From a virus (lineage: Duplodnaviria; Heunggongvirae; Uroviricota; Caudoviricetes): DNA of 58,232 nucleotides. Of the stretch, positions 9,449-32,837 are shown piece after piece. The notes below the pieces were generated by a model. The model worked only from the letters and a program-made list of their open reading frames with translations. It was not told the DNA's origin and ran no database searches. The position numbers and the translations under genes were made by a program. The stretch is taken from the IMG/VR virus record IMGVR_UViG_3300044843_000700, positions 64,001 to 122,232 of that record; one strand, given 5' to 3'. Positions within the stretch are counted from its first letter, which is position 1; each line of letters opens with the position of its first letter.

Positions 9449-12400
9449 ATGGCAGAAGAGTTACCAAATCCAAACGATATAGCTCCAGAGACGACCCTTA
9501 ACGCTGGAGTGATAAATCCACTCAGCTTAAGACCGATCGAACTGGATCTTCCGGAGCCTCCTAAGAGTTATCCTCCGATGGTTATTCCATCAACGATGAT
9601 TCCTACACAGAAGGCTGCACCTAATCAGTCTTTACAAGGAGCGCAGGCCCTTTTAAATATGTCGAGTAATGCCGGCAGCTGGGCTAAGAATCCTTTCCAC
9701 TATAACAAAGAGAAATCTTATAATGCGGATTATGATGGTGCGAATTTCAAGCGTTATGCTGAAGTTCCTCGCTTAATGCGTGAGTACGGGTTTACTCCTT
9801 ATCGAGATAACGAGAAGCTTTACAACGAGCATGCTACAAACTGGGAGTACTTCAAGAGAAGTGCTGGTCAGAGTTGGGAGCTTATGAAAACCGGTTTCAG
9901 TGAAATGCTTCCTTGGAATGCTTGGGACGGAGAAGAAGTCGACATTGAAGCTGCTCGTGAAATGGAAAGAGCTCATGCGATCGGGCATGATTCAAGAAAT
10001 GGCTTTGGTGCCTGGGTCAATAACATGACTGTTGACTCTGGATACACATTTGGTATCCTTGCTGAATTCGCAGCAGAAGAAATTGTAGGATGGGTTGGAG
10101 CAACTTTATTAGCTCCAGAATCTGGTGGAGCATCTTGGGCTGCTATGGCTGCTGAGACAGGCAATGCTGTCAATAAGATGCGCAAACTTTGGAGCCTGGG
10201 TGACAAAGTAAAAGATATGTACAAAGGAGTCAGTCGTACTTATGACTGGATCCGCAGTGCTGATAAAATGCGAGACATGTATAATCTGGGTAAATCCGGA
10301 GTATCATGGACCGCTAAGCAACTTACTCCAGAAATGATGAAGTGGGGTAGCGATATGGTGAAGGGTGGCTTCAGCATGAAAGGCGGAGAGATGATGATCG
10401 ATATGGCCAAGGCATCAAAAGGCTTTGGAGCTTTTTATCGCGACGCCCGAGCATACGCTGCCATCGTCTCTGAAGCTAAACTTGAAGGTGGTAGTACAGA
10501 ACTACAAGTTCGAGATAAGCTTATTGATGAATATGTAGCTTCACATAATGGAGAAATGCCTAATGCTGATGAGCTGACTCGTATTTATAGGGTTGCTTCT
10601 GAAGCAGGACAAAGTACTTTCTGGTGGAACGTTCCAGCTCTTTATATCTCAAACAAGATTGTCTTTGATAAAGCGCTCAAAGGTTTCAAACCTATGTCTG
10701 CTTTCAGAGAAGAACTTGAAGTAGGGCTTAAAGGAAAGCTTGCTTACAACGAAGCTTGGAAACAAGCTGGTACTAAAGCTTGGGAAGTAGTTGATGATGG
10801 ATTCCGTTCCACGTTGAAAAGCTTGACCAAGGCTAGTACATATGCTCCTAAGAATTTACTCAAGAACGGTATCGGTACATTCGTTAATTATTCTAAGGCC
10901 AACCTAACAGAAGGTCTTCAGGAGATGTACCAAGATGCCGTGCAAAATACAATGCTTGACTACTACTCGGATAGATATTATCATCCATCCATTGAGGGTA
11001 GTCGCTCTGTACTTGGCTCTTTTGTGCAAAATGCCGGTGAGACTCTTACCTCTAAACAAGGATGGGAAACTTTTGCTTCCGGATTCTTCATGGGAGGAAT
11101 GGTACAAATGCCTCAGAAGCTGGCATTCGAGTGGGCCCCTAAAGCATGGTGGAAAATAAAAGATCCAGAAGGGTACACTAAGTACATGTCCGATCTTGAA
11201 GAGCATACCAATTCCGTGGTGAATGCTCTTAATGCGGCCACAATGGACGATAAGTTTTGGGATTCAATAACCGAGAATACCGCACAACAGCTTAATAATA
11301 AGATCCAGGCCGAGAAAGCAAATGCTGCTGGTGATAAGAAGGCGTATTACGATATCATAGATGAAGATGTATTCAACCACATGCATACTCTTCTCAAGAG
11401 TGGTAAGATAAGTCTCATAAAGGATCATCTCAAAGACTTGAAGCAGCTTGATAAGAAATCTTTACAAGAAGCGTTTGGTCCTGTTGATGAGTCAGAAGGA
11501 GATGCTATGGAGGTTTACCAGAAGCGTCTGGACTCTATGATGAGAAGAGCTGATTCTGTAGAAAAGCATTATCAAGCTGTAGAGAAGCGATTCCCTAATC
11601 CGTTCGATCCTAGTCGCTATAACAGTAAGAAAAACCCGGAAGCATACTCTAACGAGTTAAAAGCCTATCAGGCTTTCGAGCAAGCTAAAAAAGCGGCCAT
11701 GTATTCCAACTACGCATTCGAACGTTCTGTTGAACGTATGAAGAGTGTAATGGATGATCTCAACAGAAACAAGCCTGTCGGAGAAGCTGCAGCTAGTGAT
11801 TTCACTACAATACTCAACAAGCAAAATCTTGATGCAGAAGTAAGCATCCTTGAAAATGAGATTCGCACTTTCCGTCAAGGTGATTCTGAGTCTAAGTCTA
11901 AAGCAGACAAGCTCCAGAAAAAGCTTGATCATCTTAAAGATTACCAGGATGCCGTAGAACAATACCAAGAAGCTCTTCGTGTAGCTTCAAAAGATAAGTC
12001 AAAGATCTCTGATCAAGAGGTAGAAACTGCGAAGAAAGCAGCTAAGATTACCAAAGGAACAAGAGTTAAGAATAAGAAAGGTAAAGAAGCTGTAGTAGCG
12101 AAAGTACGTAAAGGTATAGCTTATGATCGAGATGGTAACAGAATCGGTAGTCTTAAGACTCTTCAGGCTGTTTCCGGAGAACGTGAATCAGAAATGCTTG
12201 ATGCTGCGACAGAAGATCTTTACGAAAAGTATCACGCTTACCTGAAGTTTATTGCTTCAGATAAAGGCACCTTTGCTCCTAATGAGGACATCATGTCTTC
12301 GTTCCAAAAAGTGAAGGATTACTACAGCTTGAACCAAGATGCTTTGGACATGTCTGATGCTGTCGACACTCTACATAATCCTGCAAAACTTGCAGAATAT

Positions 12401-14365
12401 GCTAGTCGTGTAGCTCAGGTTTACGAAGAAGCAAAGAAGCAGCATAAGAGCAAGATCGAGAATTCTTATAAGCGTTTCCTACGCATGCGTAAGATGAACG
12501 ATCTCTTCAATCAATTATACAACATAGGAGTTTTCCTTGACGAAAAAGGCATGCAGGATATTCTTGAGAACAAGATGCCTGATACTTTCTTTGACATAGC
12601 TACCAAGCAAGTTATATTCGAGACGGATCCGAAGTGGCAGCAGATAAAAGATCTTTTCGCCAGCTTCAACGCTACTACGACAGAACCAATCAAAGAGGTT
12701 AGCGTTGAAGAGAAGACTGAGCAAACTCAGGAAAAGAAAGAAGCTGCACCTACAAGTATACTTACGCTTTCCTCTTCAGTAGATCAGTTTCGAGAAGCCG
12801 GTGTTCTTGATCCTATTATCAAAGCTTACCGAGAATTTGTAGCTCTTCAGAACTCTGCTACAGCAGAAGGGTGGATTGATAAATTCGCCTTAGAGAAAAG
12901 CGATGATCAAATCGCTTACTCAGATGCTTTCAAACAGTATCTGCAAATGAGTCCTGGTGCCGTAAACAGCATCTTGCGAGAGTATAATCAACAGGTACAA
13001 CCTAAAACACCTGGTATTGATTTGGGTACAGCTGCTTCTGAACAACTCGTAGCCAAAGGACAACGCCTTGGATTTACCAAAGAGCAGCTTAATGCTATGA
13101 CTCCTGAGGAAAGAGATCTTGTTCGTCAAGCTAATGCTAAGGAAGACGTACAAGGGCTTCTTGATAAGTATGCACAGAGAGCTCCTGCTCTTTCTATTGA
13201 AGATGCTAAAGCTGATATAGAAAGAAGAAGACAAGAAGAGTTAGGGGTAATAGAGAAAAGAACTTATACAGAAGATGATGGAACTACTTTTGAAGTCCAA
13301 ATACATACTACTGGAGATAAAAAAATAGTTAAAGTTACTAACCTTGATACCAAAGGTTCTTATACTACTGAATATAGTAAAGATTTAAGTAATGATAAGA
13401 TATATGAGGTGAGTAATCCCAATGGGTTTGAGTACTCCGATGTACAAGAAGTACAAAGTAGAGGGGGTAAAAAAACTGATGCTATCAATGCTAAATATGA
13501 TGCAGAATATGTAGATGCTGTTAAAAAGGGCACAATGACTAAAGAGCAGGCTATGAAAGCTCTTGAAGAAGTTGGTAGAAAAGATAGCAGTGCTTATGCA
13601 GAACTAGCTGCTTTAGAAGGACCTAAACCTGCTGAAGGAAGAGAACCTTCTACTCGAGAACAGCACAAGATCATTGTTGATGACCTAGGTTATACTTGGC
13701 CGGAAGCAAGAGCTATGTCTGCTTCGGAAGCTCAAGCTTTGATCAATGAAGGTCTGACCAAAACTCAACGTATCGAGTTAGATCGTGACCTGGCAGAAGA
13801 AGCTGAAAGAATGGCTGAGGCTGAGAAAGAATTCCTCATGGAGTACATGGAGGAACGCATCGCTAATGCGAAGTATATCGAAGAGCTCGAGACTATTGAG
13901 AACGAGCTAATGGAAGCGCTCATCGTAGATCCTATGCGAATCGATAACGATAGGATGAATACTGCTATCGAAGCTCGTAAACAACAGCTGGCTCGTGATA
14001 TAAACTTTGAGGATATACGTGAGAACGAGGTTGTTATCATGAAGGACAATCGCAAAATGATTGTTGTAGAAAAGGATGGTAATAAGCTCAAACTTCGTAA
14101 ATTTGGCGAGACGGCTGGAGCTGTGGAAATAGTTTACCAGAATGAGGTCAAGGACAAGATCCTGTACAAAGATCAACCATTTATGAGAACAGTAGATATC
14201 AATCCGCCTGTGACTCCGGAGGCTCAAGAGACTTCCAATGAAAACGTGAGATCGGCTCAAAACTTAAACACTACCGAGGCTATCGAGGAAGATCGTAATG
14301 CGGCCAAGGTGATGACACAACAAGAAGTAGATGACGAATTCAATAACTCAATAGGCTGCGAATAA
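9449..14365 (+). CDS. Giant ejection protein 1 (membrane-channel-like, vRNAP-associated)
   Basis: 1638 aa; G/A-rich hydrophobic segments (YTFGILAEFAAEEIVGWVGATLLAP; FASGFFMGG), EGLQEMYQ motif and long coiled coils; first of three giant genes, as in crAss-like phages. Confidence 0.65.
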   Translation: MAEELPNPNDIAPETTLNAGVINPLSLRPIELDLPEPPKSYPPMVIPSTMIPTQKAAPNQSLQGAQALLNMSSNAGSWAKNPFHYNKEKSYNADYDGANFKRYAEVPRLMREYGFTPYRDNEKLYNEHATNWEYFKRSAGQSWELMKTGFSEMLPWNAWDGEEVDIEAAREMERAHAIGHDSRNGFGAWVNNMTVDSGYTFGILAEFAAEEIVGWVGATLLAPESGGASWAAMAAETGNAVNKMRKLWSLGDKVKDMYKGVSRTYDWIRSADKMRDMYNLGKSGVSWTAKQLTPEMMKWGSDMVKGGFSMKGGEMMIDMAKASKGFGAFYRDARAYAAIVSEAKLEGGSTELQVRDKLIDEYVASHNGEMPNADELTRIYRVASEAGQSTFWWNVPALYISNKIVFDKALKGFKPMSAFREELEVGLKGKLAYNEAWKQAGTKAWEVVDDGFRSTLKSLTKASTYAPKNLLKNGIGTFVNYSKANLTEGLQEMYQDAVQNTMLDYYSDRYYHPSIEGSRSVLGSFVQNAGETLTSKQGWETFASGFFMGGMVQMPQKLAFEWAPKAWWKIKDPEGYTKYMSDLEEHTNSVVNALNAATMDDKFWDSITENTAQQLNNKIQAEKANAAGDKKAYYDIIDEDVFNHMHTLLKSGKISLIKDHLKDLKQLDKKSLQEAFGPVDESEGDAMEVYQKRLDSMMRRADSVEKHYQAVEKRFPNPFDPSRYNSKKNPEAYSNELKAYQAFEQAKKAAMYSNYAFERSVERMKSVMDDLNRNKPVGEAAASDFTTILNKQNLDAEVSILENEIRTFRQGDSESKSKADKLQKKLDHLKDYQDAVEQYQEALRVASKDKSKISDQEVETAKKAAKITKGTRVKNKKGKEAVVAKVRKGIAYDRDGNRIGSLKTLQAVSGERESEMLDAATEDLYEKYHAYLKFIASDKGTFAPNEDIMSSFQKVKDYYSLNQDALDMSDAVDTLHNPAKLAEYASRVAQVYEEAKKQHKSKIENSYKRFLRMRKMNDLFNQLYNIGVFLDEKGMQDILENKMPDTFFDIATKQVIFETDPKWQQIKDLFASFNATTTEPIKEVSVEEKTEQTQEKKEAAPTSILTLSSSVDQFREAGVLDPIIKAYREFVALQNSATAEGWIDKFALEKSDDQIAYSDAFKQYLQMSPGAVNSILREYNQQVQPKTPGIDLGTAASEQLVAKGQRLGFTKEQLNAMTPEERDLVRQANAKEDVQGLLDKYAQRAPALSIEDAKADIERRRQEELGVIEKRTYTEDDGTTFEVQIHTTGDKKIVKVTNLDTKGSYTTEYSKDLSNDKIYEVSNPNGFEYSDVQEVQSRGGKKTDAINAKYDAEYVDAVKKGTMTKEQAMKALEEVGRKDSSAYAELAALEGPKPAEGREPSTREQHKIIVDDLGYTWPEARAMSASEAQALINEGLTKTQRIELDRDLAEEAERMAEAEKEFLMEYMEERIANAKYIEELETIENELMEALIVDPMRIDNDRMNTAIEARKQQLARDINFEDIRENEVVIMKDNRKMIVVEKDGNKLKLRKFGETAGAVEIVYQNEVKDKILYKDQPFMRTVDINPPVTPEAQETSNENVRSAQNLNTTEAIEEDRNAAKVMTQQEVDDEFNNSIGCE

Positions 14366-14366
14366 C

Positions 14367-17300
14367 ATGATCTGTGCATTATCGGAGAATCAACAAAGAG
14401 CTCTGCGCAAGAAGGTATATAAAGACCTGGTAGCAACTCTTCAGACGGATACCCCTTTCACTGTGAAGGGGTATGTCAATTCTGTATATAGCCAAGTACT
14501 GGAAAAGAGTGACAATCCAGAGTTGGCCTTAGCTTATGCAGCCTTGGTGCCTCGTTATATCGACCAACTTAAATCCGTTGATGATGATATTCGTAGAGGA
14601 CTGCGTTCTAAAGGTGTTAACTCTGACGTAGATATCACAGATAATATCGACAAGTTTGAAGATCCTGATACCGGTTTAAATAATGTTCGCGAATACCTAG
14701 GGTTGTCAGAGGATATCGCTCAGGAAGTTCGCGAGTTGAACCAGTCTGTTCAACAAGAAACAGAGCAACAGGAAGAAAAAAAAGAGGAGCGTATTACTCC
14801 AGAAGAGCAAGAAGTAATTCCTCCACCTGCACCAAACTTCAGCTACCAGCGTTCTGAAAAAGAATTCTCAGCGGTTAAGCCTACTGTTATGGCTGACCAA
14901 GATCAGGAAGCTTTAGAATGGAGAAACAAAAAGAGCCCTGATTACAATAAAGTGAATCCTGCGGTAGCTTTCTACTTCAAGATTAAGCGTGTGATATTAT
15001 CCAAGCTTTTTGCACCTGGAGCTAATCAGAGCAGTGAAAACATTTCTGTAAATGCGTTAGTGGGTCAAGGTGTATACCTGACTTTGATGCCGGTTAGCAA
15101 ACTGGACCGAGACAAGATTCGTCCTAAAGATCTTGAGCCTGTAGAAGCTGGTCAACCTTCGAACTGGGATTCTAACGAACCGGTTCTTGTGCTTACAGAT
15201 CGATATGGTTCAACCATATTGTTTAACGACAATGGAGAGTTTGACATTAATGGTAAGCCCGCATATTACTACTTCCGTAAAATCTATCCGAGCCAAGTTC
15301 GTGATGGTAAGGTTGACTTATGGAAGTCATCCAATCCTAACACTTCAGATGATTATGATCGCGCAGACTCATTAGCTCGTCAGAAAGGTATAAGCAAAGA
15401 AGAAGCTATTGATCAAATACGTAAAGAGCTTCAGACAGCATATGATCTTCGTCAGGCTTTAAAGAATAACCCTGATATGAGGATCCGTTCTGAGATTACG
15501 GGTGGAACCTTCGGATATCCGGCTATGGATTACAACATTGATACTCCAATATCGAGCATCAATTTTGGTAACTACCCTGTGTCATTTGATGTAGCTCCTA
15601 TGACAGATCCTACTACTGGAGCTATAAAAGGACGCACATATTTTCAGACAGCTGAGACCGGTTCTCGTCTTATTGAGGTAGAACGTCCAGCTTTGAATGC
15701 TATCAACGGTATGGTGGATCGTGTGGCAGATTTGATGTTTAAGAACATCTTGGTGCCAATTGGAAACACTATGTCTCCTATAACAAGTCAGCAGCGTCAT
15801 GACTTTATCCAACAGTATTTTATGACTCGAGGAGAAGGTCTAGATTTTATTACTGAAGAAGATGGCTCTTACAAGGTGAAGATTAAGGGTGATGTTATCT
15901 ACAAGTCTTTACCGACAAGAAAGAAAGAGGCAGATGGTACATGGACTGATATTGGTCAGTATTCTCCGGAAGTTGTTTCTGCTAAAAAAGCAGAAGCAGA
16001 TATGGCTTCAGCACAGGTAAAAAATTACCTGAGCACCTTATCACCTCAGACAAAGATTGAACGTCCTACTGATGCAGAAAAAGCTCGATCTACGAGTAAC
16101 CCTGCTGAATTTCGCGTAGGATCTATTTATAAAGCCGCTGACGGCTCTTATTGGCGAGTAGGTTATCCTAAAGCCAATATAGCTTCTGCTTACGTTAAAA
16201 CGGATTTCAAAGATGTTACGATTGAGGATCGTGATGGTAAGTCTGTTCTTAATACTACAATTCGTCCTTACGCGGACTACATCAAAGAGAACTTCGTAAT
16301 ACACTATCCAGTAAACTCTGAGGGAAGACTTACTAACCTCAATGCTTATTTCACCTTTGAGCCTTTGCAAGAGGATCTAGAAAAGGTATACAAGAAAGAA
16401 GAGCCTGCTATTAATACTCCAGTAGAATCTCCTTCTATAGAGCAATCTGACATTGCCAGCAACAACGTTAAAACAGGTCTGGATGCAGCTTTTGATGATC
16501 CTTCTCTGAATAAAGAGTTAGATCAGAAGAATGCTGATAAGAAGGCTACCCAGGAACAAATTGCTGCAGCTAAGACTTGGTATGAAAATCATCCTTTGAG
16601 CAAGCACTTTCCGTTCGAAGCTATGTTCAATGCTGTCAACAGTAAAAATCCTAGAGCTGTTGCTAATTGGACTATCCAGGGTATCACTCTTTATAAAGGC
16701 TCGGATTACTCAGATCTTTACCACGAAGCATGGCACGGATTCACTCAAGCTTTCCTTACAAAAGAGCAGAAGAAATCTTTGTATAACGAGGTAAGAAAAA
16801 AGAGCGGAAGCTTCACAGACTACAAAGGCCGTCGAGTATCTTTCAAATATGCTAGTGATAAACAAGTTGAGGAATATCTTGCTGAAGATTTTCGTCAGTG
16901 GATGTTGTCAGGAGCTAAGTCTGAAATTAAAGATCCGGTTAAGCGTAATATCTTCCAGAAGATCTTGGATTTCTTGAGAGCTCTTTTTGGAGATCTTACT
17001 CCTAGCCAATTGAATGGTGATGCTCAAGCTATGCGTACAGTGCATACTCTTTATGAGAAAATGCGCGTAGGTAACCTTAACGAGTATTCATTCTCACAAG
17101 ACAATGTAACCTTTACTATTCTTGACAAAGGAGCTGTAGCTTTCAAAGAAGATGCCTCTATACAAAGCTTGAGTTACGAAGACTCTCGCTTCCTTGTAGA
17201 AGCTATGGACTCTTTCATGTCAAAGTTTGTGGATGATTTTAGCAAGGGTAAACGTAATCAGTTATTAGCTCAGGCTCCGGATTCCCAGCTTTCCTATAAG

Positions 17301-20300: not shown

Positions 20301-23300
20301 CTGTTCCCTCTTATCCCTAGTGTTATTCAAGACAAGCGTCTGAAAGATCTACACGATAAGATGACTACAGAAGGTGTAGATTACGCTCTGTTCCAATCCG
20401 GTTCCAAAGTAGGAACTATCACCAAGGAAGGTAAGAATGACAAGCTTTACCTCGAAGAAACAGATCGTAAGATAGACGAAAGTCCGTTTACCAAGAACAC
20501 AATCTTCCTTAACTACCTGAAGAACCAGCTGGAGATTGCTCCAAAGTTCAAGGAGAAAGTAATATTCTCTACACAGCTTCGTAAGCTTATCGAAGATGGT
20601 TTAGTTGAAGGTGGTGTACCTACAGATTTCAGACCTGATCTAGACCTTAATAAGCGTCGTCAAGCTTGGAAAGCTCTAGGTTCTGATCAGGCTCGTCTTG
20701 ATCAATCTAAGAACTATCGCTTGTACAAAAACTATGAAGCGAATGTTGCTAAGCTTACCGAGCTTAAGAAGCAGGAACTTCTTGACGAGATGCAATGGAC
20801 TATTGTTGATGGTAAGGCTCAAGGAAGTCTTGAAAACTTGTTGAAGTTTGTAAGAGAAGAACTCACAAGACAAGACATGGCCGATCACGAAATAGATTTC
20901 ATCGATCTTGGTCGTGGTGGTAAAGGTTTAAAGCACGATCTATCAATGTCACTTTCTGCTGAGAAGATTGAGAAGATGCTGAATGCTATTGTGACAAGAC
21001 GTTTGATTAAGCAGAAGGTGAATGGTGAAGGTCTTATCCAGGTTTCTGGTGCAGGCTTTGAGAGTTCATCATCTACTGGTCGAAATTATACTAACCCTAC
21101 AGATGCTGATAAAGCTAAGTGGGGTACAAATGATTTACCTACCTATCACCGAAAAGCAGACGGAACAACTGCTGCTATGAAAGTGAAAGTAGCAATGCAA
21201 GGACAGTTTAAGAAACTGCTCGAGCTTAAAGACAAAGAAGGTAATCGCATCGGATCCCTAGATCGTCTGAACCAGTTGCTCAAAGATGACGCATGGTTAG
21301 ACATGGATGAACACCGTCGTATGATTACAATGGTTGGTGTGCGTATTCCAGTACAAGGTTTGAACTCTATGGAGTTCATGGAAGTGTACGAGTTCCTTCC
21401 GGAAGAAGCAGGAAACATTATCGTTCCACCAGCAGAGATCGTAGCTAAATCAGGATCTGACTTTGACATCGATAAGCTTACAGTAATGATGCCTTCGTAT
21501 CGTACACAAAAAGATGCAGAAGGTCGTAGTACTACAGTGATGGCCCGTCAGGTTTCTGATAAGGAAGCTAAGGCTCTTTACGAAATGTACAAGGATTACA
21601 AAGTAAGATCTGAGCGTCGTAAAACAGAGATATCACCTAGAACAGCTGGTACAAGAACTCTCGAAGATCTTGCTGTATACGATGATTTGATGTACAGTAT
21701 ATTTGGTGTTTCTCCAGAAGAGCTTGATGCTGAAATGAAAGAGATGCTTCTTGAAGAAGGTAAGATGCAGTCTTATGAAGACTTCTTCCGTAAGCTTAAT
21801 GGCACAAAAGCTGTAGAGAATGATCTTATCTGGAATATCAAGGAGATCTTAGAGCAACCTGAAAACTTTGCCAACCTAGTTCGTCCGAATGGTACAGATA
21901 TCGTTAAGCCTCTTGCTGATGAGTTAGCAAGTAAGGTGATCGAGTACAATCCTAAGGAAAGATTATCTGGTGAACTTTCTCCTGAAGATGCTGAAGAGTT
22001 ATCCGAGTCTACAAGTAATGTTGCAGGATCTCGCGTGCTTGAAATAGGCTATAACCTTTACAAGCATAGCTCCAATAATATTGGTAAGCAAACTCTAGGT
22101 CTAGGTGCAGTTGACAACACCTACAACGTCATCTTCAATCGTATTGGTGCTTACATGAACCCTACAGGTAAAGTTAAGATCAATCGTGGTAGAAATATTC
22201 TCGAGGTTCGTCAGACATTGTTGATGCCTCACAATACTCTAGACGTAGATGGTAAAGAAGCAATTTCTCTTTCTCATGCTATGGCTAAAGATGGCAATCG
22301 TATTTCTGACGTGATATCTCAGCTTATAAATGGTTGGGTGGATATCGCTAAGGATGCCTGGATCTTCAATATTCAAGGTAACAAAGAAGTAGCACCTACA
22401 CTATTATTCATGGTTCAAGCCGGTGTTCCTTTTAAGACTGCTGTTTACTTAGCCTCTCAACCTATGGTTAGAGATTATGTAGAAGCTCAGCGTCTAGCAA
22501 AAAGCACCTTTGGAGATCTTATGGGTACTGCTGCAGAGAATGTAAACTTCTACCGCAACCAAGCTAGAAAAGCTATTCTTTCCGGTGGAAAGTATGGTTT
22601 CAATCTTGATCCTAGAAAAGTAGAAAGACAAGATAAAGCTTACATGTACAAAGCAACAGTAGAGCTTACAACAAAAGCTTTTGCTGAAGATAACGGTCAG
22701 GTGGTAGACTCAAAACTTACCAGCGAAATCGATAAGTACAAAGAAGCCATTAAAGCTGGAACAGAGCCTGAGTACTCCGAGTATCAAAGAGCTGCTTTCC
22801 TGCACTTCCTTGAAATAGAAGAGATGGCTAAAGCTGTTCGTGATATCAAGATGCGCCTGAACTTCGATACCAGCAAATCTGATAGCTTATTCGATGCTCA
22901 GAACAGAACTCTTATGCTCAATGAGCTAAGAGAGAATGGTCGTATTCCTGAGAACATTGTCGATAATATTCTTAAGCACTCTGTTATTGGTAGCTTCTAT
23001 GTTCAACCTTTTCAGCTAGAAGTATGGAAAGATCTTTTCCCTCTTCGTAATAGCCCGGTACTGAACAAGTGGTTAGCCGATAAGATGCAAGAAGGTATCA
23101 TGGATGATGTTAACGATACTTTCGGTGATGCAGAAAAGTTTGCCAACGAACTTCGTAACGATCTTGTGAGCTTCATCTTCCAGAATACTGTAAAAGGATT
23201 TGATGTTGACAAGCTTACTCATTACAAAGGTGAAGCCCTAGAAGACATGAGTGCTTCTAAGCTGAACGAAAAAGAGATGGTGTCTAGCTTAGCTATTGGC

Positions 23301-24833
23301 GTATTCTTCAAGAATGGTAAAGCTTATGCAGACAAGGAATCCTTAAAGCGTCAATACATCAACCAGCTTTACTCTAAAGAAGCTTATGCAAGCTTCGGCT
23401 TAGCTAAAGTTGCTCCAGGTACATTCGATTCTCAAGAAGAGTACAATCATTTTGTGTTCGAACGTGAATACCTACGCAGCATGTATCCTACAGTTACATC
23501 CTTACAGAACAACGTAGAGTATAACTGGATAGTGAAAAATGTGAAGGCTGATACTAAGCGTTTAGAAGGTGAGACTGATGAGCAGTTTGGAGAAAGAACA
23601 GATCGTCTGGGTTATGAAGAGTTCATCAAGGAGAAAGCTCTAGAGAATATCTTGAATGGGTCTAAGCTTTTCAAAGGAGACAAGACTTATGCTGATAAGC
23701 TTGTTATGATAAAGACTATGTTCCCCGAGTTACTCGATGAGTATTCTCTTATCAAGAAGCTTGCAGCATCCTCATCTAAAGTAGGTATGGAGCAGTATAC
23801 AAACATTCAGCTTCAGGATCCTTTAAGCGATCCAGACCTACTGAATCTCTACTACGAGAACATGGTGAGTCTGATGGATCCTACTGTGAAGAAAGTAGAA
23901 GATGCTGCTTCAAATAAGATGATTAGCGATTTCTTTGCGAAGCTTCCTCTTGTTGGCTTCTTGCAATCTGGCTTGAGTACTAAGTCCCAGATGTCTTTCA
24001 ACCGGATTATGCCTCAGGATTCTTTTATAAGAATCATGGAACAACCAATGAAAGAGTATACAGCTAAGCTTAATCCTTTAGCTCTGGATGTGTTTTATAA
24101 GAGGTTTGTTGATCAGAACAGTGCGTCAAGAAGCCGTCTGCGTAACCGTTATAAAAATTACATGGTGCCTGGCTTTAGCTTAAATCAGTCTTACGCTTTA
24201 TCTAAAAAAGGAGCTGAGGTATACATGCCTACTGAGTACTCTGAAGCAGCAAGAGAACTTCTCGAGAAAGATTACAGAGGAGTAGAAACTTTTGATGCTA
24301 AAGCTATCAACTTGGAAACAGCTAATCAAGTCGCACAGAATAATCCGGACAAGGTGTTTGTATACAATGACGCCTTTGAGTCTAGACAAACAACCGGCTT
24401 TACTGGTGAGCGCTCGTTTAAGCAGCTTCCTATTTCCAATAAGGTAGGTCTTCCTACATACAGAGTTTACTCAATCACAAAAGCTACAGCTATCCAAGAT
24501 GTAAACAATGAGATCAATCCTCAGCTCAAAGCTAGAATCGATGAAGCTGTTGAGAATATGAAAGCTCTTCAACGTGAAGGTAAGACTCTTGTGTTCTCTT
24601 CTGAAGGTTATGGTCAAGAATGGAATGGTGTTTATAAAGGCGTTGTTCCAAGGCCAGATGCTCAAGTTAAGGCACCTGAAAGTTTCTTATATTTGTCGGA
24701 GCAATTGTACCGTAACTTCGGCTACATAAATCCCGGATATCAAGTGAAGGAAAGAGGAAGAGCTGTTATCCAGGAAGGTCAGGAAATCACTGACCAAATG
24801 GTAAGAGATTATATGTCACACTGTTATAGATAA
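14367..24833 (+). CDS. Virion-packaged DNA-dependent RNA polymerase (crAss-type single-chain vRNAP) with zincin-like domain
   Basis: GVRIPVQG followed by GSDFDIDKL (DFDID at 21459-21473), the catalytic motif reported for phi14:2 gp66; HEAWH...EEYLAE zincin motif (16722-16736); 3488 aa. Confidence 0.9.
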   Translation: MICALSENQQRALRKKVYKDLVATLQTDTPFTVKGYVNSVYSQVLEKSDNPELALAYAALVPRYIDQLKSVDDDIRRGLRSKGVNSDVDITDNIDKFEDPDTGLNNVREYLGLSEDIAQEVRELNQSVQQETEQQEEKKEERITPEEQEVIPPPAPNFSYQRSEKEFSAVKPTVMADQDQEALEWRNKKSPDYNKVNPAVAFYFKIKRVILSKLFAPGANQSSENISVNALVGQGVYLTLMPVSKLDRDKIRPKDLEPVEAGQPSNWDSNEPVLVLTDRYGSTILFNDNGEFDINGKPAYYYFRKIYPSQVRDGKVDLWKSSNPNTSDDYDRADSLARQKGISKEEAIDQIRKELQTAYDLRQALKNNPDMRIRSEITGGTFGYPAMDYNIDTPISSINFGNYPVSFDVAPMTDPTTGAIKGRTYFQTAETGSRLIEVERPALNAINGMVDRVADLMFKNILVPIGNTMSPITSQQRHDFIQQYFMTRGEGLDFITEEDGSYKVKIKGDVIYKSLPTRKKEADGTWTDIGQYSPEVVSAKKAEADMASAQVKNYLSTLSPQTKIERPTDAEKARSTSNPAEFRVGSIYKAADGSYWRVGYPKANIASAYVKTDFKDVTIEDRDGKSVLNTTIRPYADYIKENFVIHYPVNSEGRLTNLNAYFTFEPLQEDLEKVYKKEEPAINTPVESPSIEQSDIASNNVKTGLDAAFDDPSLNKELDQKNADKKATQEQIAAAKTWYENHPLSKHFPFEAMFNAVNSKNPRAVANWTIQGITLYKGSDYSDLYHEAWHGFTQAFLTKEQKKSLYNEVRKKSGSFTDYKGRRVSFKYASDKQVEEYLAEDFRQWMLSGAKSEIKDPVKRNIFQKILDFLRALFGDLTPSQLNGDAQAMRTVHTLYEKMRVGNLNEYSFSQDNVTFTILDKGAVAFKEDASIQSLSYEDSRFLVEAMDSFMSKFVDDFSKGKRNQLLAQAPDSQLSYKWTSTLLKTPAGLKYAYEQILKDFATVRNGLADQLAKASEEQKPALQKQINRLDWAIDNFGDINNLINNRPEKGQAPKGMIGYHMLKSKVLEAESKEAFFDEDVTKEEDLFLKGREGFDRNGNETSLKDLASKEILFILRGLHKTDVNGRPVYVNGTEAEVDGVKTGIPQLEDFDKVWNVLAKALQNTLSAEEMYKKMISYGAKYPDFPMKQLLDKLGPLQTAGSNEFHLWTNFWQTFNKTRVPLLQTTVEITTLDNEGQSLAFENWGFAIKPGIAFSDTKRIQTAWQGMFAAEETPYIKPDKGGVNTLDLDKVIKDFPLNSLPGRELQFLRAIGFKLDENNEDISNALKSKEVAVTPFWYAINNLRMRRDSAGRPAVRITRLVQLKAEYPEVPKRNSDGSIVRDEKIPALRGEGANFNAILELQAKYSDKWGNFMVTNAEGNTQFEHTLNNSLTVMVNAINDVSSYEELISLPWMSHLDVKRNPFAKASLWLNSVFNMNDKYPDGKIRGLKRMDKKGNPVVMNLQNLSGVAINKDGQFDNDLGIASAKADAVTKLLMDFHMVLLKGAPELTRHADKGTSFSVYLSNIYTRGDKPSTTYVDTLDFLRSIKDSTGVDTGVTRADVNLLDNILMPHIAAELSRIKQMRDMEAMRKENKASVQNFDFKYMERGKGFVVFSDVLSSPTKKALLKVEGDLMDFLNTADPKAVRLKTAISNDVQAYFSKESARVGKMFNKAKNRDGKSLISDNLYKKIIGDANNDADLRGKFNKNSAQLKDALVKSFVVNSWVHNLESISVIYGDLALYNMAKEEFHKRNAGAGSTGTIYRTDAQAVSYVNNVLGRGYYSKNFPGQPVKQFNGTFDTAIVKDNEIRSVYFKEYAEAMIQDEINRGLSETEAKKKVLGVDKSGKIGTIEEPIKGGLAYAYQEMNEGDAQGWITFDSYRILLTLEGKWSDAQEKMYQKIIAGDRVSPADVTMFFPTQKVQYFGPLQTEGLPITAFHKFSLFPLIPSVIQDKRLKDLHDKMTTEGVDYALFQSGSKVGTITKEGKNDKLYLEETDRKIDESPFTKNTIFLNYLKNQLEIAPKFKEKVIFSTQLRKLIEDGLVEGGVPTDFRPDLDLNKRRQAWKALGSDQARLDQSKNYRLYKNYEANVAKLTELKKQELLDEMQWTIVDGKAQGSLENLLKFVREELTRQDMADHEIDFIDLGRGGKGLKHDLSMSLSAEKIEKMLNAIVTRRLIKQKVNGEGLIQVSGAGFESSSSTGRNYTNPTDADKAKWGTNDLPTYHRKADGTTAAMKVKVAMQGQFKKLLELKDKEGNRIGSLDRLNQLLKDDAWLDMDEHRRMITMVGVRIPVQGLNSMEFMEVYEFLPEEAGNIIVPPAEIVAKSGSDFDIDKLTVMMPSYRTQKDAEGRSTTVMARQVSDKEAKALYEMYKDYKVRSERRKTEISPRTAGTRTLEDLAVYDDLMYSIFGVSPEELDAEMKEMLLEEGKMQSYEDFFRKLNGTKAVENDLIWNIKEILEQPENFANLVRPNGTDIVKPLADELASKVIEYNPKERLSGELSPEDAEELSESTSNVAGSRVLEIGYNLYKHSSNNIGKQTLGLGAVDNTYNVIFNRIGAYMNPTGKVKINRGRNILEVRQTLLMPHNTLDVDGKEAISLSHAMAKDGNRISDVISQLINGWVDIAKDAWIFNIQGNKEVAPTLLFMVQAGVPFKTAVYLASQPMVRDYVEAQRLAKSTFGDLMGTAAENVNFYRNQARKAILSGGKYGFNLDPRKVERQDKAYMYKATVELTTKAFAEDNGQVVDSKLTSEIDKYKEAIKAGTEPEYSEYQRAAFLHFLEIEEMAKAVRDIKMRLNFDTSKSDSLFDAQNRTLMLNELRENGRIPENIVDNILKHSVIGSFYVQPFQLEVWKDLFPLRNSPVLNKWLADKMQEGIMDDVNDTFGDAEKFANELRNDLVSFIFQNTVKGFDVDKLTHYKGEALEDMSASKLNEKEMVSSLAIGVFFKNGKAYADKESLKRQYINQLYSKEAYASFGLAKVAPGTFDSQEEYNHFVFEREYLRSMYPTVTSLQNNVEYNWIVKNVKADTKRLEGETDEQFGERTDRLGYEEFIKEKALENILNGSKLFKGDKTYADKLVMIKTMFPELLDEYSLIKKLAASSSKVGMEQYTNIQLQDPLSDPDLLNLYYENMVSLMDPTVKKVEDAASNKMISDFFAKLPLVGFLQSGLSTKSQMSFNRIMPQDSFIRIMEQPMKEYTAKLNPLALDVFYKRFVDQNSASRSRLRNRYKNYMVPGFSLNQSYALSKKGAEVYMPTEYSEAARELLEKDYRGVETFDAKAINLETANQVAQNNPDKVFVYNDAFESRQTTGFTGERSFKQLPISNKVGLPTYRVYSITKATAIQDVNNEINPQLKARIDEAVENMKALQREGKTLVFSSEGYGQEWNGVYKGVVPRPDAQVKAPESFLYLSEQLYRNFGYINPGYQVKERGRAVIQEGQEITDQMVRDYMSHCYR

Positions 24834-24839: not shown

Positions 24840-27800
24840 ATGTTAGCATGCCCGTTTGGACCGGAGTGGGATACACTCGTTAAAGAAGTAGGTAAATTTC
24901 AAGCCTACAGAGACTACCTTCAACATGATGGTGAAATTCGTACGCCGGAAGAGGTGAAATCCAAACTGGCATCGGAAGGTATTATGACCTCCATGTATCC
25001 AGCTCACCAGTATCAAATAGAGCGTACGCCTAATACTGCAGCCACAGCTACAGTAGAGGTGTTTACTTCTATGGCTGAAGCTCTTCTTAGTAAGTTCCCG
25101 GAAGGATATACATACAGATTAGAACACCGTACAGATGTTCCTTGGAAAGGTTATGTTGAGCCAGCTAATCCGAATTCTGTAGGAGGAAAACCTACCATTG
25201 TGATCAATACTGCTAAAGCTAGTCTTGATACACCTCTACATGAGTTTGGTCATATTTTCCTGAACATGGTCCGTCAGGAGAATATTCGTCTTTATTTCCA
25301 GTTGATGAATGGCGTCTTTACTACAGAGACTGTTGACGAAACAGCTATGGATCCTAAAACCGGTAAAGAGGTCACCAGAAAAAAGATTGTAGGTTATAAA
25401 CCTAAGGACAAGTACAAGACCTTGTTCGAAGAGATCCAGCGTCTGTATCCTAACAGTACAGAAGAAGAACATGCAGAGGAGCTCATCACGGAGCTCCTTG
25501 GTCGTTATGCTTCGGAGTACTATGATCCTGCTACAGGTAAAGTAAAAAAAGACTTCGAGAGTGATGATTCAATCTTGAAAGGTATTGCCAGTACCTTGAA
25601 GAAAATATGGGAAGCTATTAAGGATGCTCTCTTCAGAAACACAGTTCTTGTAGAAGTCAAAGACCTTAATCCTAATGCTACAATAGAGAATCTTGCTATG
25701 ATTCTGGCTCACCCTATGGTGAAGTTCAATGTAGGATCCATGCGACAAAAAGTAAGTGAGCAGCAAGTAGAAGGATTGAAAAAGCGCTTGACTCAAATGA
25801 AGAGCCTTAAGGATAGCTTCATAGCTGATCCCACTATTACTTTAGTAAGATCTGGTAACTACCAGTATCTTCTTACAAAGAAGCAAGGCGAACGTCTAGA
25901 GCTTATTAGATCGAAGCTTCCGATGATTCGTGCCTATGTAGATACTAATCCTAACGGTCCAAAAATTCGTCACGCTAAAGGTGTGTATGGAGGCTCAACC
26001 AAATTCCGTAATGGACTAGAGAAGTTGGCTAGTATTTATCTTGAGAAACCGAACATGTCGACTCAAGAAAAGCTTGCCGTTCTCGATCGTCCAGAATTCT
26101 CTCGAGTAAAGACTATACTACAAGCTTATCCTGATGGTCTAGATTATGTTGTAGAAAAAGTTTCCGGACCAAACCATGCTTATGTTATTGATCAAGCTGT
26201 AAAAGATGCAGCGATACTTTTCTGGGGTAGTGGTCGTGGAAGTGCTTCTCGAGATTATGAACAACATACACCAGAGATGCTTTTAAAGCAGCTTCTTGAT
26301 GGAAGCGATGAACATCTCAACAGGATATTCAACTTCCCAAAAGCTTTTGCTAAAACACATGCGATAATAGACAGAGCTCCTAGTGTTCAAACAGTATTGG
26401 AGGCCATTGACAAAAAGATTCAGGAGTACACTAAAGCTATAGAATCTCCTTCTGCTTACTTTAATAAATCTCGTAGAGCTACATTTAAGGTATCCTCTGT
26501 AAGACCTACAACAGGAGAAGTCATCGAAGATGAGATTACTGTAGCAGGTAATCTGAGAGAAGATGGAGATGTTGAAGTATCGTTTAGCTCAGACATTTGG
26601 AGCATGACGGATCCTTATTGGATTGTACCAGCCACAGAAAGAAATATTGGAGAAGGTAGTCGCGTTGTAAAAATCAGTGCTTCTGGAAGATCTGTGTCAA
26701 GATCTCGCACATCTGAAAGGATGGATACTCGAGATGAGTATGGAGTAGTTGAACATGATAATACTTCAGCTCTGATTTTACCTGCCGGTGCTTTCAGAGA
26801 ATATATGGATGCCAAGAGAAATGGCGACAATACTCAGATGGAGTATTGGCATAACAAAGCAACTCTTGTACCTATCAATACCCTTGAGGTAAAACAGTCT
26901 CAAGATAAGAGAGCTCTAGATGTAATGAATGGTGTGGTAGAAACTCTTGCTGCTATGTTCGAAGACGTGGATTACACCTCATTTATCTTTACCCCGATGT
27001 CTGGAGAATCTCTAACAAGAGAGACCGGTGAAATGCGTGAGAAGCTTTATAACCTTACGGCTAAACGTCTTTTTGGAAGATGGTCTCCTCTAGGAGAAGG
27101 AGTCTTCTCAAGAAGGCTTATGGTACCAAACTGGTTCCGTCCTGGTATCAAGATGGAGAAACCGGTTTACCAGATGGACAGTGCACCAGACAGCTTAAAT
27201 CAGTTTGTAGAAGATACAGCTGACAACATGGCTACTCTTGGTATTGAAGCTATAAGAGGTTCCATTAAAGTAGACGAACGTACACAAGATAACGCTTCTG
27301 GAGTAGGTGCTATTAAAGCTTTTGCCCGTGGACTAGCTGGTCAGCTTACTCTTGAAGGAAAGCCTGTTAACTATGCATTCATCGATACTGCAGAAGCACA
27401 ACGATTGACTGAAGGAAAAAAGAATCCTTGGTCCGGAGAGAAAGCCTTCTTCATTGGAGATACTGTATACTTTGTGGGAGATAACATTTCTTTGAGTGAT
27501 GTTTTCCACGAGTTTGCTCACCCGTTTGTACGTACTCTTTTCTACCAGAATGAAGGTCTTTTCCGAAAGCTGTATCAAGATCTAGTAAGTACTCAAGAAG
27601 GTATTGCTCTTTATAATCAGGTAAAACTTGCTTATCCGGAGCTTAATGATACGGATCCTCTCTTCATGGAAGAGATGCTTGTCAGAGCTATTACTACTGC
27701 GGCAAACTTGGAACAACAAGGCAAGAGTGAATCTAAAGGGTTCGCGAAGTTTATGAAAGATCTTCTTTACGCTATAAAGCAGATGCTTCGTAAAGCTTTC

Positions 27801-30800: not shown

Positions 30801-32837
30801 GAAGTTGTTCGTACTAAAAAGCTGAAGGTGATTGCCGGAGGACTAGGTGAAAAGAATTTCCCTTTCCTTCAGATCATGGTGGAACGCGTTAAGAACTTCT
30901 TCCGCAAAGCTAAAGATCAAAAAGGATCCGAGTACAACTGGGAAGATGATGCAGTACTAGTTCGTGCAGACATGTTCGATAACGAGATTGCAAGTATCCC
31001 AATCAGCGGTCTCTATGATATCGATATTGATGACACATCAGTAGATGTTAATCAGTCACTGATGCGTTATATGTTCTCGGCTGAACGTCACAAGAAGCTT
31101 GTTGAGATCAACCCTGTTGCTCAAGCGTTAAAGACTACTGTGAATGATCCTAAGAATCTTGCTAAGCAAATGGATCGCATCAATAAGTTCAACTTTATAC
31201 ACCGTGGAGTTGTCACTTATCTGAATAAGAAAGGACGCTACACTCGTCAAGCTGCAGTGAACAATTTCATCGAGCGTGAGTTCGAAGGACAGGTTGATGC
31301 CGGGTTTACAAAAGATATGCCTTGGTTACAGAATGCAAGTAACATTATCATGGGTCGTGCAGCATTCAGTTTCTTTGCTTTGAACATTCCTTCCGCTGTA
31401 AAGAATGCCATCGGTGCAAAGTGGCAAGCTATGATTCATATGGCAGGGGGTATTGATGTAGATGCTGTGTCTATGAGTAAAGGTGAAGGATGGTCTTTTA
31501 ATACCATGGCTCAAATAAGTTCTCAGATCTACACGAGAGGACCTAAGCCTTTGAACATGCAGATTCTAGATTCTTTTGATGCTATTCGTGAAAGAGCTGA
31601 AGATAAGCTTCCAGAGTCAATGTCTCGTACTTTCATGCATGATGCTGTTAACTTCAGTTGGCTTATGAACTTCCGTAAATGGACCGAGATGCAAGCTACA
31701 GCTCAACTTTTTGCAGGTATGATGTATAAGCAAAAGGTTGACATGAAGGGTAAAGAGATTTATTACATGGATGCCTGGGAAACTAGAGATGGTCAGCTTA
31801 GACTTAAAGATGGTATTGATGTAAGATGGTCAAACATTCCTACTGAATATACTGTTCAGGAAGGTGATACCATGGCTTCGCTTGCTGCTAAGTTCAACAT
31901 GTCAGAGGAAGATCTGCGAAAAGAAATTAGCGGAAAGCTTAAAGCTGGTAAGGAGATAACTATCAATAATGGTAAGTACAAAGCTTTCAAGAATAGAGTG
32001 CACTCTGTTACTATGAATCTGAACGGAGCATATTCTAAGTTTGATCAACCGGAAGCACAGCGTTATTTAGCATTCCGACACATCTCTTTCTTGAAGCGTT
32101 TCTTTACCACGATGTTTGTTAATCGCTGGGGATACTCAGGATCTATTCTTGGAGCCAAAAGAGGTCGTGTTAACCCTGGAATGGGTGACATCCATGAAGG
32201 TTATTATGTTACCACGTTAAAGACTCTGTGGCGCACGATTGAGTTTGGTGGGAAGAATCTTCCGCATATGACTCCAGAAGAGCGTGCAGCGCTTAAAAAG
32301 ACCCTTGTCGAGGTAATGGCGGCTATAGCTCTATTGATGGTTGTTGCTCCAATGTTAGGATGGGATCCTACAGATCCAGAACGTTATGAAAAACTTCGTA
32401 AGCGCAGTGGTAATCTTCCTTTCTTCGGTCTTGTACCAGAAGATCCAGAACACCCATTCAATATGGGAGGGTGGTTAATGAACCATGCCTTATTGATGAC
32501 TCTTCAAGTGCGGGCTGAGAACGAAGCTTTCATTCCTTGGATGGGCTTTGGTCTTGACAATTACTACGAGACTTTCACTGATGCTACATCGATCGGATAC
32601 GGTCCTACGCTGAAATCGTATAAGCAAATGCTAGAATACCTCTACATGGAGATGACTGGTAACCCTTATGCTTATTATCAGAAAGATGCTGGTCCATACG
32701 AGTGGCAAAAAGAGGGAGGATCTAAGCTTATGACTACCTTCTGGAAGTCTCTCGGTCTAACAGGTGGTTCAATTGATCCAGTTACAGCCATCAAGAATAA
32801 TCCTACGCTTTCCTCTGGGAGCAGCAAGATGAGATAA
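24840..32837 (+). CDS. Giant ejection protein 3: two zincin-like HExxH domains, LysM domain, C-terminal hydrophobic segment
   Basis: HEFGH (25239-25253) with downstream EELITE; HEFAH (27507-27521) with downstream EEMLVR; YTVQEGDTMASLAAKFNMSEEDL LysM pattern (from 31845); LVEVMAAIALLMVVAPMLGW hydrophobic stretch. Confidence 0.75.
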   Translation: MLACPFGPEWDTLVKEVGKFQAYRDYLQHDGEIRTPEEVKSKLASEGIMTSMYPAHQYQIERTPNTAATATVEVFTSMAEALLSKFPEGYTYRLEHRTDVPWKGYVEPANPNSVGGKPTIVINTAKASLDTPLHEFGHIFLNMVRQENIRLYFQLMNGVFTTETVDETAMDPKTGKEVTRKKIVGYKPKDKYKTLFEEIQRLYPNSTEEEHAEELITELLGRYASEYYDPATGKVKKDFESDDSILKGIASTLKKIWEAIKDALFRNTVLVEVKDLNPNATIENLAMILAHPMVKFNVGSMRQKVSEQQVEGLKKRLTQMKSLKDSFIADPTITLVRSGNYQYLLTKKQGERLELIRSKLPMIRAYVDTNPNGPKIRHAKGVYGGSTKFRNGLEKLASIYLEKPNMSTQEKLAVLDRPEFSRVKTILQAYPDGLDYVVEKVSGPNHAYVIDQAVKDAAILFWGSGRGSASRDYEQHTPEMLLKQLLDGSDEHLNRIFNFPKAFAKTHAIIDRAPSVQTVLEAIDKKIQEYTKAIESPSAYFNKSRRATFKVSSVRPTTGEVIEDEITVAGNLREDGDVEVSFSSDIWSMTDPYWIVPATERNIGEGSRVVKISASGRSVSRSRTSERMDTRDEYGVVEHDNTSALILPAGAFREYMDAKRNGDNTQMEYWHNKATLVPINTLEVKQSQDKRALDVMNGVVETLAAMFEDVDYTSFIFTPMSGESLTRETGEMREKLYNLTAKRLFGRWSPLGEGVFSRRLMVPNWFRPGIKMEKPVYQMDSAPDSLNQFVEDTADNMATLGIEAIRGSIKVDERTQDNASGVGAIKAFARGLAGQLTLEGKPVNYAFIDTAEAQRLTEGKKNPWSGEKAFFIGDTVYFVGDNISLSDVFHEFAHPFVRTLFYQNEGLFRKLYQDLVSTQEGIALYNQVKLAYPELNDTDPLFMEEMLVRAITTAANLEQQGKSESKGFAKFMKDLLYAIKQMLRKAFGQSSNVSKLGPNTTIKQLADMLKEGKNFILDEQVTENIDTVAYVRDTRKFIEDVAMITKPELMSITVRAHDIALKHIDTVMRNKNYREIASILADEFKRGDLQEIQRNLNKFAKPLEDKLRAKRDEVEYNKAHAEALVNTFFRLQNMVGKIKEHMKELSKDPDSIDNMHKAYYYDYLLRYWSDYIDEVIETMNEAEVPETSPLSELVTSIKRGIESSKDYTKKMYATGVKDVLYSELRPMAERIAERYSKIIENLKKNNADPKLIDKWMMEYYGLNQEELARKEGLENAYKNGLITTEQKKELDFLRKKSLDGAQITDEKIEMALKGELKDANVFNSFFEGYMYNTDPVIGGFALYVKNQMSDVMNAAMVKFNDYAKDLKPLLEAAGYNPANVNELIEKVGRRELIGKIDSYGKWVEKEVWTLKSAHTGWRIAMDRARRAIDDAQRQYSMTGTSEDHEKLVEAVADRKKLLRDYFHQEYDKKVYARDYMLEKGYKVVDGVDIGIEAAYRRDKIFELMAEISNPLTTQMEHLEMAEQMDNLWREYHQLYSLVDLNGKLKTGVDREVALLLKEHRAAGVDTDQYLPDGSLNPNYMKSFHDWKLRTGVFENTLAQFEQELVNKYGKDTPEFNFFREQWIKKNTRTVIKPEFYEERKKILEAIDTIMAKLPDAQQKKLNVSEMWSQILDLTAGNRDEDGQPNGLNFTEQGIAFIKEKQLEIQKAMEKFAGLSGLNKQEAAELQGYWDVINAKERRLTPEEQERFNALMSISDNTGLSKLDKQKLFGLFAKLQGLQKKEATDYYVSIMNNWLSKLNTGLMMNELGTNTITREAANMILEDHVINPLLQQDEEFKTWFKNNHIRKTVYDKESGQQKEIWERIYAWNVVRPVEKEFYEQTEIKREDGTSEIIDGLPSLKYYARVVKPQYRTERVVGVTVDNQGNFLPRTDVADSPYIDHEYMQMSKTDPKHYAILEKMKEHHLKNQESLGYKNRLYLDIPRYRKNALEVVRTKKLKVIAGGLGEKNFPFLQIMVERVKNFFRKAKDQKGSEYNWEDDAVLVRADMFDNEIASIPISGLYDIDIDDTSVDVNQSLMRYMFSAERHKKLVEINPVAQALKTTVNDPKNLAKQMDRINKFNFIHRGVVTYLNKKGRYTRQAAVNNFIEREFEGQVDAGFTKDMPWLQNASNIIMGRAAFSFFALNIPSAVKNAIGAKWQAMIHMAGGIDVDAVSMSKGEGWSFNTMAQISSQIYTRGPKPLNMQILDSFDAIRERAEDKLPESMSRTFMHDAVNFSWLMNFRKWTEMQATAQLFAGMMYKQKVDMKGKEIYYMDAWETRDGQLRLKDGIDVRWSNIPTEYTVQEGDTMASLAAKFNMSEEDLRKEISGKLKAGKEITINNGKYKAFKNRVHSVTMNLNGAYSKFDQPEAQRYLAFRHISFLKRFFTTMFVNRWGYSGSILGAKRGRVNPGMGDIHEGYYVTTLKTLWRTIEFGGKNLPHMTPEERAALKKTLVEVMAAIALLMVVAPMLGWDPTDPERYEKLRKRSGNLPFFGLVPEDPEHPFNMGGWLMNHALLMTLQVRAENEAFIPWMGFGLDNYYETFTDATSIGYGPTLKSYKQMLEYLYMEMTGNPYAYYQKDAGPYEWQKEGGSKLMTTFWKSLGLTGGSIDPVTAIKNNPTLSSGSSKMR

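Follow-up and report, generated by a model that had tools for sequence, protein, structure and literature searches.

Paired cysteines at facing termini suggest head-to-tail chaining of giant cargo proteins in crAss-like phages

The stretch of DNA analysed here (58,232 nucleotides (nt), hereafter the window) comprises bases 64001-122232 of IMG/VR record IMGVR_UViG_3300044843_000700, a 122-kb viral contig rated complete by CheckV. Its plus strand encodes three consecutive giant proteins, P1, P2 and P3; P2 is, as judged from profile matches, a crAss-type virion RNA polymerase (vRNAP) flanked by cargo genes of the gp47 type and the gp49 (zincin) type. Cysteines of these proteins occur exclusively at the tips of the termini that face each other across the two gene junctions. 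From the comparison with related genomes we consider it rather probable that P1, P2 and P3 are joined head to tail, probably by disulfides, into a thread of about 886 kDa that passes through the tail and is undone in the reducing cytoplasm of the host.

Four cysteines at two gene junctions

P1 (9449..14365), P2 (14367..24833) and P3 (24840..32837), all on the plus strand, are 1638, 3488 and 2665 amino acids (aa) long, and a recount of their 7,791 residues returned four cysteines, none of them internal. Cys1637 of P1 (codon TGC, 14357..14359, plus strand as the others) is the second-last of 1638 residues, the protein ending in IGCE. P2 starts with MIC, in which Cys3 is encoded by TGT at 14373..14375, and ends in HCYR, with Cys3486 (TGT, 24822..24824) as the third-last of 3488 residues; P3 starts with MLAC and carries Cys4 (TGC, 24849..24851). 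The outer termini, i.e., the N-terminus of P1 and the C-terminus of P3, have no cysteine. Other open reading frames (ORFs) of the window contain about 1.1% cysteine, which would correspond to about 85 in P1-P3, and, given four cysteines, the probability that all of them fall into the 16 positions no more than four residues away from the four facing termini is about 1.8e-11. A sequence-only reading of this DNA had reported the same four terminal cysteines and the cysteine-free outer termini; the recount agrees with it to the base in every coordinate, and no additional internal cysteine, which would have spoken against it, came to light in P1-P3. The computed masses add up to 886 kDa (185 + 395 + 306), near the ~0.87 MDa which that reading had given for the chain.

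Together with the upstream gene for the 1019-aa protein P0 (6381-9440, plus strand), the three genes form a tight array of four big genes with spacers of 8, 1 and 6 nt between P0 and P1, P1 and P2, and P2 and P3, respectively. The short distances of 1 and 6 nt agree with a coupled and equimolar production of P1, P2 and P3. P2 and P3 lie in one reading frame, with only a TAA stop and two codons between them (24831-24842), and P1 and P2 are 1 nt apart.

Conservation of the terminal cysteines

Scanning IMG/VR yielded 80 related loci with 28-58% identity, which after homology mapping and clustering at 80% identity represented 51 lineages with 93 junctions within the cargo block. A junction was counted as paired if a cysteine was located no more than 10 residues from both facing termini, and this was the case for 91 of the 93. 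The cysteine on the C-terminal side is the last residue in 36 of the 91 paired junctions and the second-last in 26, and that on the N-terminal side occupies position 3-6 in every one of them. Internal cysteines amount to 12 in 348,748 residues (0.0034%) across the 51 lineages. None of 49 outer C-termini has a cysteine; four outer N-termini do, in loci apparently cut off before P1. Terminal cysteines are encoded by TGT in 158 and by TGC in 29 cases, and the use of both codons points to selection on the residue. Both unpaired junctions involve interrupted genes: the start of P2 is frameshifted in L039, where the interrupted frame still reads MVNCSL, and P3 of L043 is broken into pieces of 1716 and 187 aa.

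In alignments of 35 relatives, one column alone is near-invariant over the last 250 residues of P2, that of Cys3486, and one alone is invariant over the first 250 of P3, that of Cys4, which exceeds the nearby HEFxH motif in conservation. Residues flanking the terminal cysteines are wholly different between subclades. No conserved second potential ligand was found in the 30 residues inspected near the terminal cysteines, nor was there any other conserved column in the 250 residues.

The same pattern was found in cultured and named phages (negative positions are counted from the C-terminus, -1 being the last residue). Phage phi14:2 has cysteines at -1 of g067, at 3 and -2 of g066 and at 3 of g065. 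For crAss001 the positions are -3 in gp47, 5 and -9 (plus one internal cysteine) in gp50 and 5 in gp49, with gp47 encoded on the strand opposite to gp50 and gp49; in Dulem virus 41 the three successive proteins have them at -4, at 4 and -1, and at 5. The terminal-cysteine rule spans the order and also holds for genomes of Intestiviridae and Suoliviridae. Additional scans seeded with cr10_1 gp32 and crAss001 gp50 retrieved mainly relatives with 96-99% identity and added few independent points. Conservation across crAss-like vRNAP loci, named in the sequence-only reading as a check, was thus borne out, with terminal-only cysteines kept down to about 30% identity and in the cultured phages.

Internal cysteines differ in frequency between gut-derived relatives and the clade of the window. 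Gut Crassvirales loci (L083, L085, L162-L169) have about 0.08% in the cargo block by a rough count, with up to 15 in cr271_1 gp48, compared with 0.0034% in the environmental clade (L001-L080); terminal pairs are kept in both. The higher content in gut relatives may reflect relaxed selection in an anoxic habitat.

Cysteine pairs follow gene boundaries

The number of genes that encode the cargo block varies within the order. In Suoliviridae (cr118_1, cr55_1, cr10_1 and relatives) P1 and P2 are one protein of 4.3-4.9 thousand residues, in which P2 starts, according to its full-length profile, at about residue 1040-1230. The P1-P2 fusions have no cysteine before residue 2000, the fused junction included, and keep the pair between P2 and P3 (-4/3, -4/5 and -3/5). 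L073 behaves like these fusions, with no cysteine before residue 2000 and the P2-P3 pair retained. By hhalign, the Suoliviridae giants resemble P1 in their N-terminal part (E 1.6e-5, probability 79%, with null controls). Hidden Markov models (HMMs) of the 200-aa terminal regions found no match at the fused junctions, being too clade-specific, and full-length profiles were used instead; full-length profiles of P1 and P3 found no match in the distant fused proteins. In Intestiviridae (cr271_1, cr11_1 and Rudgehvirus jaberico) it is the downstream, P2-P3 part that is fused, and these phages have a single upstream pair (-2/3) and no C-terminal cysteine.

The opposite event was found in L027, L037, L039, L042, L063 and L073, where an extra 'link' protein of 242-950 aa lies between P2 and P3. 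Residue 3 and the last residue are its only cysteines, and the preceding P2 and the following P3 keep theirs. In sister phages P2 is longer and unsplit, and its C-terminus matches the C-terminal ~120 residues of the link protein over their full length (E down to 1e-17). By this alignment the link protein is a portion split off P2; the unsplit P2 proteins have no cysteine at the site matching the link-protein boundary. Boundaries have also moved. The P2 of the window contains an HExxH module (HEAWH) at about residue 786, near 16722-16736, whose homologous counterpart in Dulem virus 41 (E 1.7e-15) spans residues 2322-2400, towards the C-terminus of the P1 equivalent (L169, 4764-12188). The first cut is therefore differently placed in the series of modules, and both cuts are paired.

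A cargo block thus has two, four or six terminal cysteines, depending on how many junctions it contains, in agreement with pairwise links rather than with one shared cluster. Where genes are fused the pair disappears, where a new boundary arises a pair comes with it, and this coupling to gene boundaries is, on the sequence evidence, the strongest argument that two facing cysteines belong together. Linking of C-terminus to N-terminus in gene order, as suggested by the sequence-only reading, gains support from all these comparisons: conservation, loss at fusions, gain at new junctions and moved boundaries.

A few gene breaks have no cysteine pair. Breaks inside P1, P2 or P3 occur in L025 (2791-9998), L039 (7634-7832) and L043 (23927-24017). 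Probable causes are errors in assembly or sequencing, or else recent pseudogenisation, and the breaks in L025 and L043 may be a frameshift or a short gap. In the Steigviridae phage cr108_1 (L162, 9341-20931; gp054/gp053), the vRNAP is annotated as two ORFs, 290 nt apart and without facing cysteines, and the P2 profile is continuous over the break (hmm 2166 to 2167). Another member of the family, cr116_1 (L168, 10091-20956; gp051/gp049), has an 840-nt insert with a small cysteine-rich ORF, and this break is unpaired as well. Both are probably introns, with or without a homing endonuclease, and not protein boundaries.

A model of the chain

We propose that P1, P2 and P3 are made as separate polypeptides and would then be joined in the order P1-P2-P3, each link running from the cysteine at the C-terminal tip of one protein to that at the N-terminal tip of the next, most probably as a disulfide. 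As the cysteines are at the very tips, the joined chain would be almost linear, as a thread through portal and tail must be: a pseudo-polyprotein of ~886 kDa with side stubs of at most ~10 residues. Partly unfolded, it could travel through the portal and tail channel as a single thread, with fixed order and stoichiometry, and internal cysteines would have been purged so that wrong or intrachain disulfides cannot block unfolding or threading, an explanation already put forward for the ejection proteins of N4-like phages. The reducing cytoplasm of the host would finally cut the links and free the polymerase, as a counterpart of proteolysis in relatives with a fused polyprotein. The terminal-cysteine observation itself is real and far from random, and the pattern is conserved order-wide; chaining appears well supported by the comparative evidence; from it we infer the bonding of the paired cysteines, its disulfide nature, the time of its formation and the release by reduction. 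For Crassvirales in general, we would give an even chance to the statement that two to four giant cargo proteins are chained via terminal cysteines into a thread approaching 1 MDa, which is ejected in order and unzipped by thiol reductants of the host cytoplasm, fusion (peptide bond plus protease) and fission (disulfide plus reduction) being interchangeable evolutionary answers to one problem of delivery.

AlphaFold2 models of both fragments, the N-terminal one of P3 and the C-terminal one of P2, were confident, with pLDDT values of 85 and 81. Cys4 of P3 was placed in an N-terminal coil ahead of a helix (residues 8-17) and Cys3486 of P2 at the end of the last predicted helix, so that both are predicted to sit at the extremities of folded modules. 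Co-folding of the C-terminal 250 aa of P2 with the N-terminal 250 aa of P3, based on custom alignments, gave 0.46 versus 0.34 for the best control, which is under the required margin and counts neither way. The virion of crAss001 contains several specific intermolecular disulfides, namely in the gp57 dimer, between tail hub and ring and between R1 and R2 (PMC10172136), and by analogy interchain disulfide chemistry appears feasible in crassviruses. In the proposal of its authors, the cargo leaves in a partly unfolded state, and packing and mutual interactions determine the order; the RNA polymerase-associated cargo is unresolved in that structure (PMC10172136).

Several points weigh against the proposed chain. 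As the lineages share ancestry, the 91 junctions cannot be counted as 91 independent cases; independence applies to a handful of fusions, fissions and boundary shifts. The evidence for the bond is all comparative, P1-likeness of the N-terminal part of the Suoliviridae giants is moderately supported by the hhalign result, and the N-terminus of L073 gave no significant match to the P1 profile. The host cytoplasm, where virions are assembled, is reducing, and a search of the 122-kb genome for genes of thioredoxin-fold proteins or glutaredoxin found none. The cysteines would therefore need to be oxidised inside the capsid, after lysis or by another factor. Gut relatives meet anoxic conditions outside the host cell as well, and aerobic purification might be the origin of the disulfides seen in crAss001.

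Alternative explanations

The pairing of facing termini might be mediated by a shared metal ion (zinc, copper or iron, completed by side chains or solvent), resulting in a non-covalent, metal-clamped chain. To this the comparative pairing evidence applies equally, and such a bridge would form in a reducing cytoplasm, so that the problem of oxidation does not arise; acidic residues are moreover common beside the C-terminal cysteine of P1 (as in DLDC and EDNSKTC), and a histidine precedes the cysteine in P2 of the window (SHCYR). However, these histidine and acidic neighbours are not conserved across subclades, and each terminus offers one cysteine without a second conserved ligand within 30 residues, whereas a zinc-hook-like site would take at least two conserved ligands from each partner (CxxC or Cys/His). 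Two thiolates alone are a poor site for the common structural metals, and a single metal cluster shared by all termini does not match counts of two, four or six cysteines. We regard metal bridging as unlikely, although it is the least unlikely of the alternatives. It is somewhat less probable that the thiols stay free in the virion and are oxidised only after ejection, by the periplasmic Dsb system of the host, locking a trans-envelope assembly instead of serving in threading. No oxidation in the cytoplasm or capsid would be needed for this, the LysM domain, transmembrane (TM)-like stretch and zincin motifs of P3 suggest work at the envelope, and cysteine avoidance in ejected proteins has already been tied to periplasmic oxidases (PMC11445570). 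Such a lock is, however, hard to reconcile with a vRNAP that must act on cytoplasmic DNA, and it leaves the strict terminal closeness (the last residue in 36 of 91 cases) unexplained, which the geometry of threading does explain.

Terminal cysteines could also bond elsewhere, within copies of the same protein (homodimers, or rings and polymers of P2) or with portal or inner capsid proteins. About six copies per virion were suggested for crAss001, which would allow homotypic contacts, and crAss001 gp57 is a disulfide-linked homodimer. Bonds of this kind do not account for cysteines at facing termini only, with none at 49 outer C-termini, or for their joint loss on fusion and joint gain on fission, or for two cysteines in middle proteins versus one in end proteins, and we hold them to be improbable. 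Least credible of all, in our opinion, is a terminal cysteine with no linking role, e.g., a processing or recognition mark, a redox sensor or a residue left over by descent. Its case is that support for a bond comes from comparison and that all lineages have common ancestry; against it, the cysteine is the sole invariant column amid fully diverged flanks, and pairs are gained at new and lost at fused boundaries, with both codons used. Other candidates were rejected. A cause at the DNA level, such as a stop-start coupling signal, was ruled out, as crAss001 gp47 is on the other strand, the cysteines are variable in position and in their flanks, and either codon occurs. Readthrough or recoding is unlikely and was discarded, the stops being TAA and frames and spacings differing between loci. 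Neither a signal peptide nor a CaaX context is present, which ruled out a lipobox and prenylation, and intein or ligation chemistry was dismissed because no N-terminal cysteine is located at residue 1 or 2 and the C-terminal one often ends the protein.

Assignment of the cargo block and other features of the window

The profiles of P1, P2 and P3 were built from environmental relatives only, leaving out the known phages. That of P1 matched crAss001 gp47 (E 1.9e-26), that of P2 phi14:2 gp66 (E 3.7e-38) and crAss001 gp50 (E 5.2e-25), and that of P3 crAss001 gp49 (E 2.4e-22); phi14:2 gp67 and gp65 themselves had no match to the P1 and P3 profiles at E 0.01. P1 is accordingly listed as the orthologue of crAss001 gp47 and the positional equivalent of phi14:2 gp67, and P3 as an orthologue of the crAss001 gp49/phi14:2 gp65 type. 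The sole match of P2 in the PDB was the two-barrel RNA polymerase gp66 of phi14:2 (6VR4; E 1.6e-23), and tblastn with P2 gave matches in many Crassvirales. Its catalytic motif DFDID (21459..21473, plus strand, residues 2365-2369) conforms to the pattern DFDxD. None of P0-P3 has a match in PHROGs, which marks this as a divergent environmental crAss-like lineage.

P3 carries two HExxH motifs, HEFGH and HEFAH. The former is of zincin type (25239..25253, plus strand, residues 134-138), with the consensus HEFxHP in the alignment of relatives; Foldseek of the N-terminal model of P3 against the PDB returned nothing significant, just weak zincin-like rows. Towards its C-terminus, P3 has a LysM domain (31848..31922, plus strand, residues 2337-2361; PF01476, 23.2 bits versus a cut-off of 20.9), the only Pfam domain above its cut-off, and a TM-like hydrophobic stretch (32286..32369, plus strand, residues 2483-2510) detected by a crude Kyte-Doolittle scan. 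The neighbours of the polymerase had been described from the sequence as membrane-anchored. For P3 this receives weak support from the single TM-like stretch and the LysM domain; P1 had no TM-like stretch in the crude scan.

P0 has two cysteines only, at residues 128 and 134, which occur at identical positions in many relatives (MATY... proteins of L001, L003, L005, L010, L013, L019, L030, L049 and L069), other relatives being without them. In crAss001, gp45 (cargo protein 1) likewise has only two cysteines, eight residues apart (390 and 398). The pair in P0 may be a local disulfide or an inter-subunit site. Further upstream, an 821-aa virion-module protein (1398-3863, plus strand) with an N-terminal ParB-like domain (phrog_1033, E 6.9e-10) has two close cysteine pairs, 201/204 and 270/278. 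The minus strand of the window holds the replication module, including DNA polymerase, helicase and ligase.

Comparison with known systems and significance

The three-protein modules gp67-gp66-gp65 of phi14:2 and gp47-gp50-gp49 of crAss001 resemble that of the window in composition and in the terminal-cysteine pattern. Their cargo is packed in the virion and believed to be ejected, packing of the cargo block being known from mass spectrometry for these two phages only. The proteins of the window are much larger (a vRNAP of 3488 aa versus 2180-2412 aa) and only 20-25% identical. Some crAss-like phages fuse the three proteins into a polyprotein, which is probably cleaved (Drobysheva et al., bioRxiv 10.1101/2020.03.07.982082). 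In the fused blocks of Suoliviridae and Intestiviridae, modules and their order are as in the window, but a peptide bond stands in place of the proposed cysteine pair, the fused junctions have no cysteine and release is thought to be proteolytic rather than reductive.

Ejection proteins of Schitoviridae (N4 gp50-52, DEV gp71-73) have practically no cysteine (0.00075%), termini included, and avoidance of disulfides during envelope passage was proposed as the reason (PMC11445570). They share with the window a giant ejected vRNAP and companions that are nearly cysteine-free internally, but have no terminal cysteines and imply no chaining, whereas the proteins of the window keep four conserved terminal ones and are not completely devoid of cysteine. 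The gp50 polymerase of N4 is T7-like and unrelated to P2, which is not of N4 type. The disulfides of the crAss001 virion are specific interchain bonds too, but are seen by cryogenic electron microscopy as static braces of shell and tail, not as links between ejected cargo. In AB toxins, such as diphtheria toxin and the clostridial neurotoxins, one disulfide tethers the translocated chain, which is set free when this bond is reduced in the cytosol of the target cell; these proteins are unrelated to the proposed chain, have a single link which is not at the chain termini, and are not from phages.

Full-text literature searches found no paper mentioning terminal cysteines of crAss-like cargo or a resulting chain, and the words 'cysteine' and 'disulfide' are both absent from the phi14:2 preprint (bioRxiv 10.1101/2020.03.07.982082). 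The sequence-only reading had known of no description of a redox-released ejection chain, and the search found none either. There are precedents for cysteine-poor ejected proteins, for virion disulfides and for fused polyproteins; it is the conserved terminal pairs and the chain they imply that were not found in the literature.

Crassviruses are the most abundant phages of the human gut, and the proposed chain addresses the question of how their narrow tail lets through proteins of several hundred kDa in the correct order and quantity. The rule is also of use in annotation: where a cysteine pair accompanies a gene break, a real protein boundary is indicated, and where it is missing, an intron or frameshift. 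Two cultured phages, phi14:2 (on Cellulophaga) and crAss001 (on Bacteroides), make the idea directly testable. If true, a redox-cleavable covalent thread would be a simple physical answer to ordered delivery, and would jointly explain why the same modules are encoded by one gene or by two to four genes, why internal cysteines are purged and how the polymerase is released at the right place.

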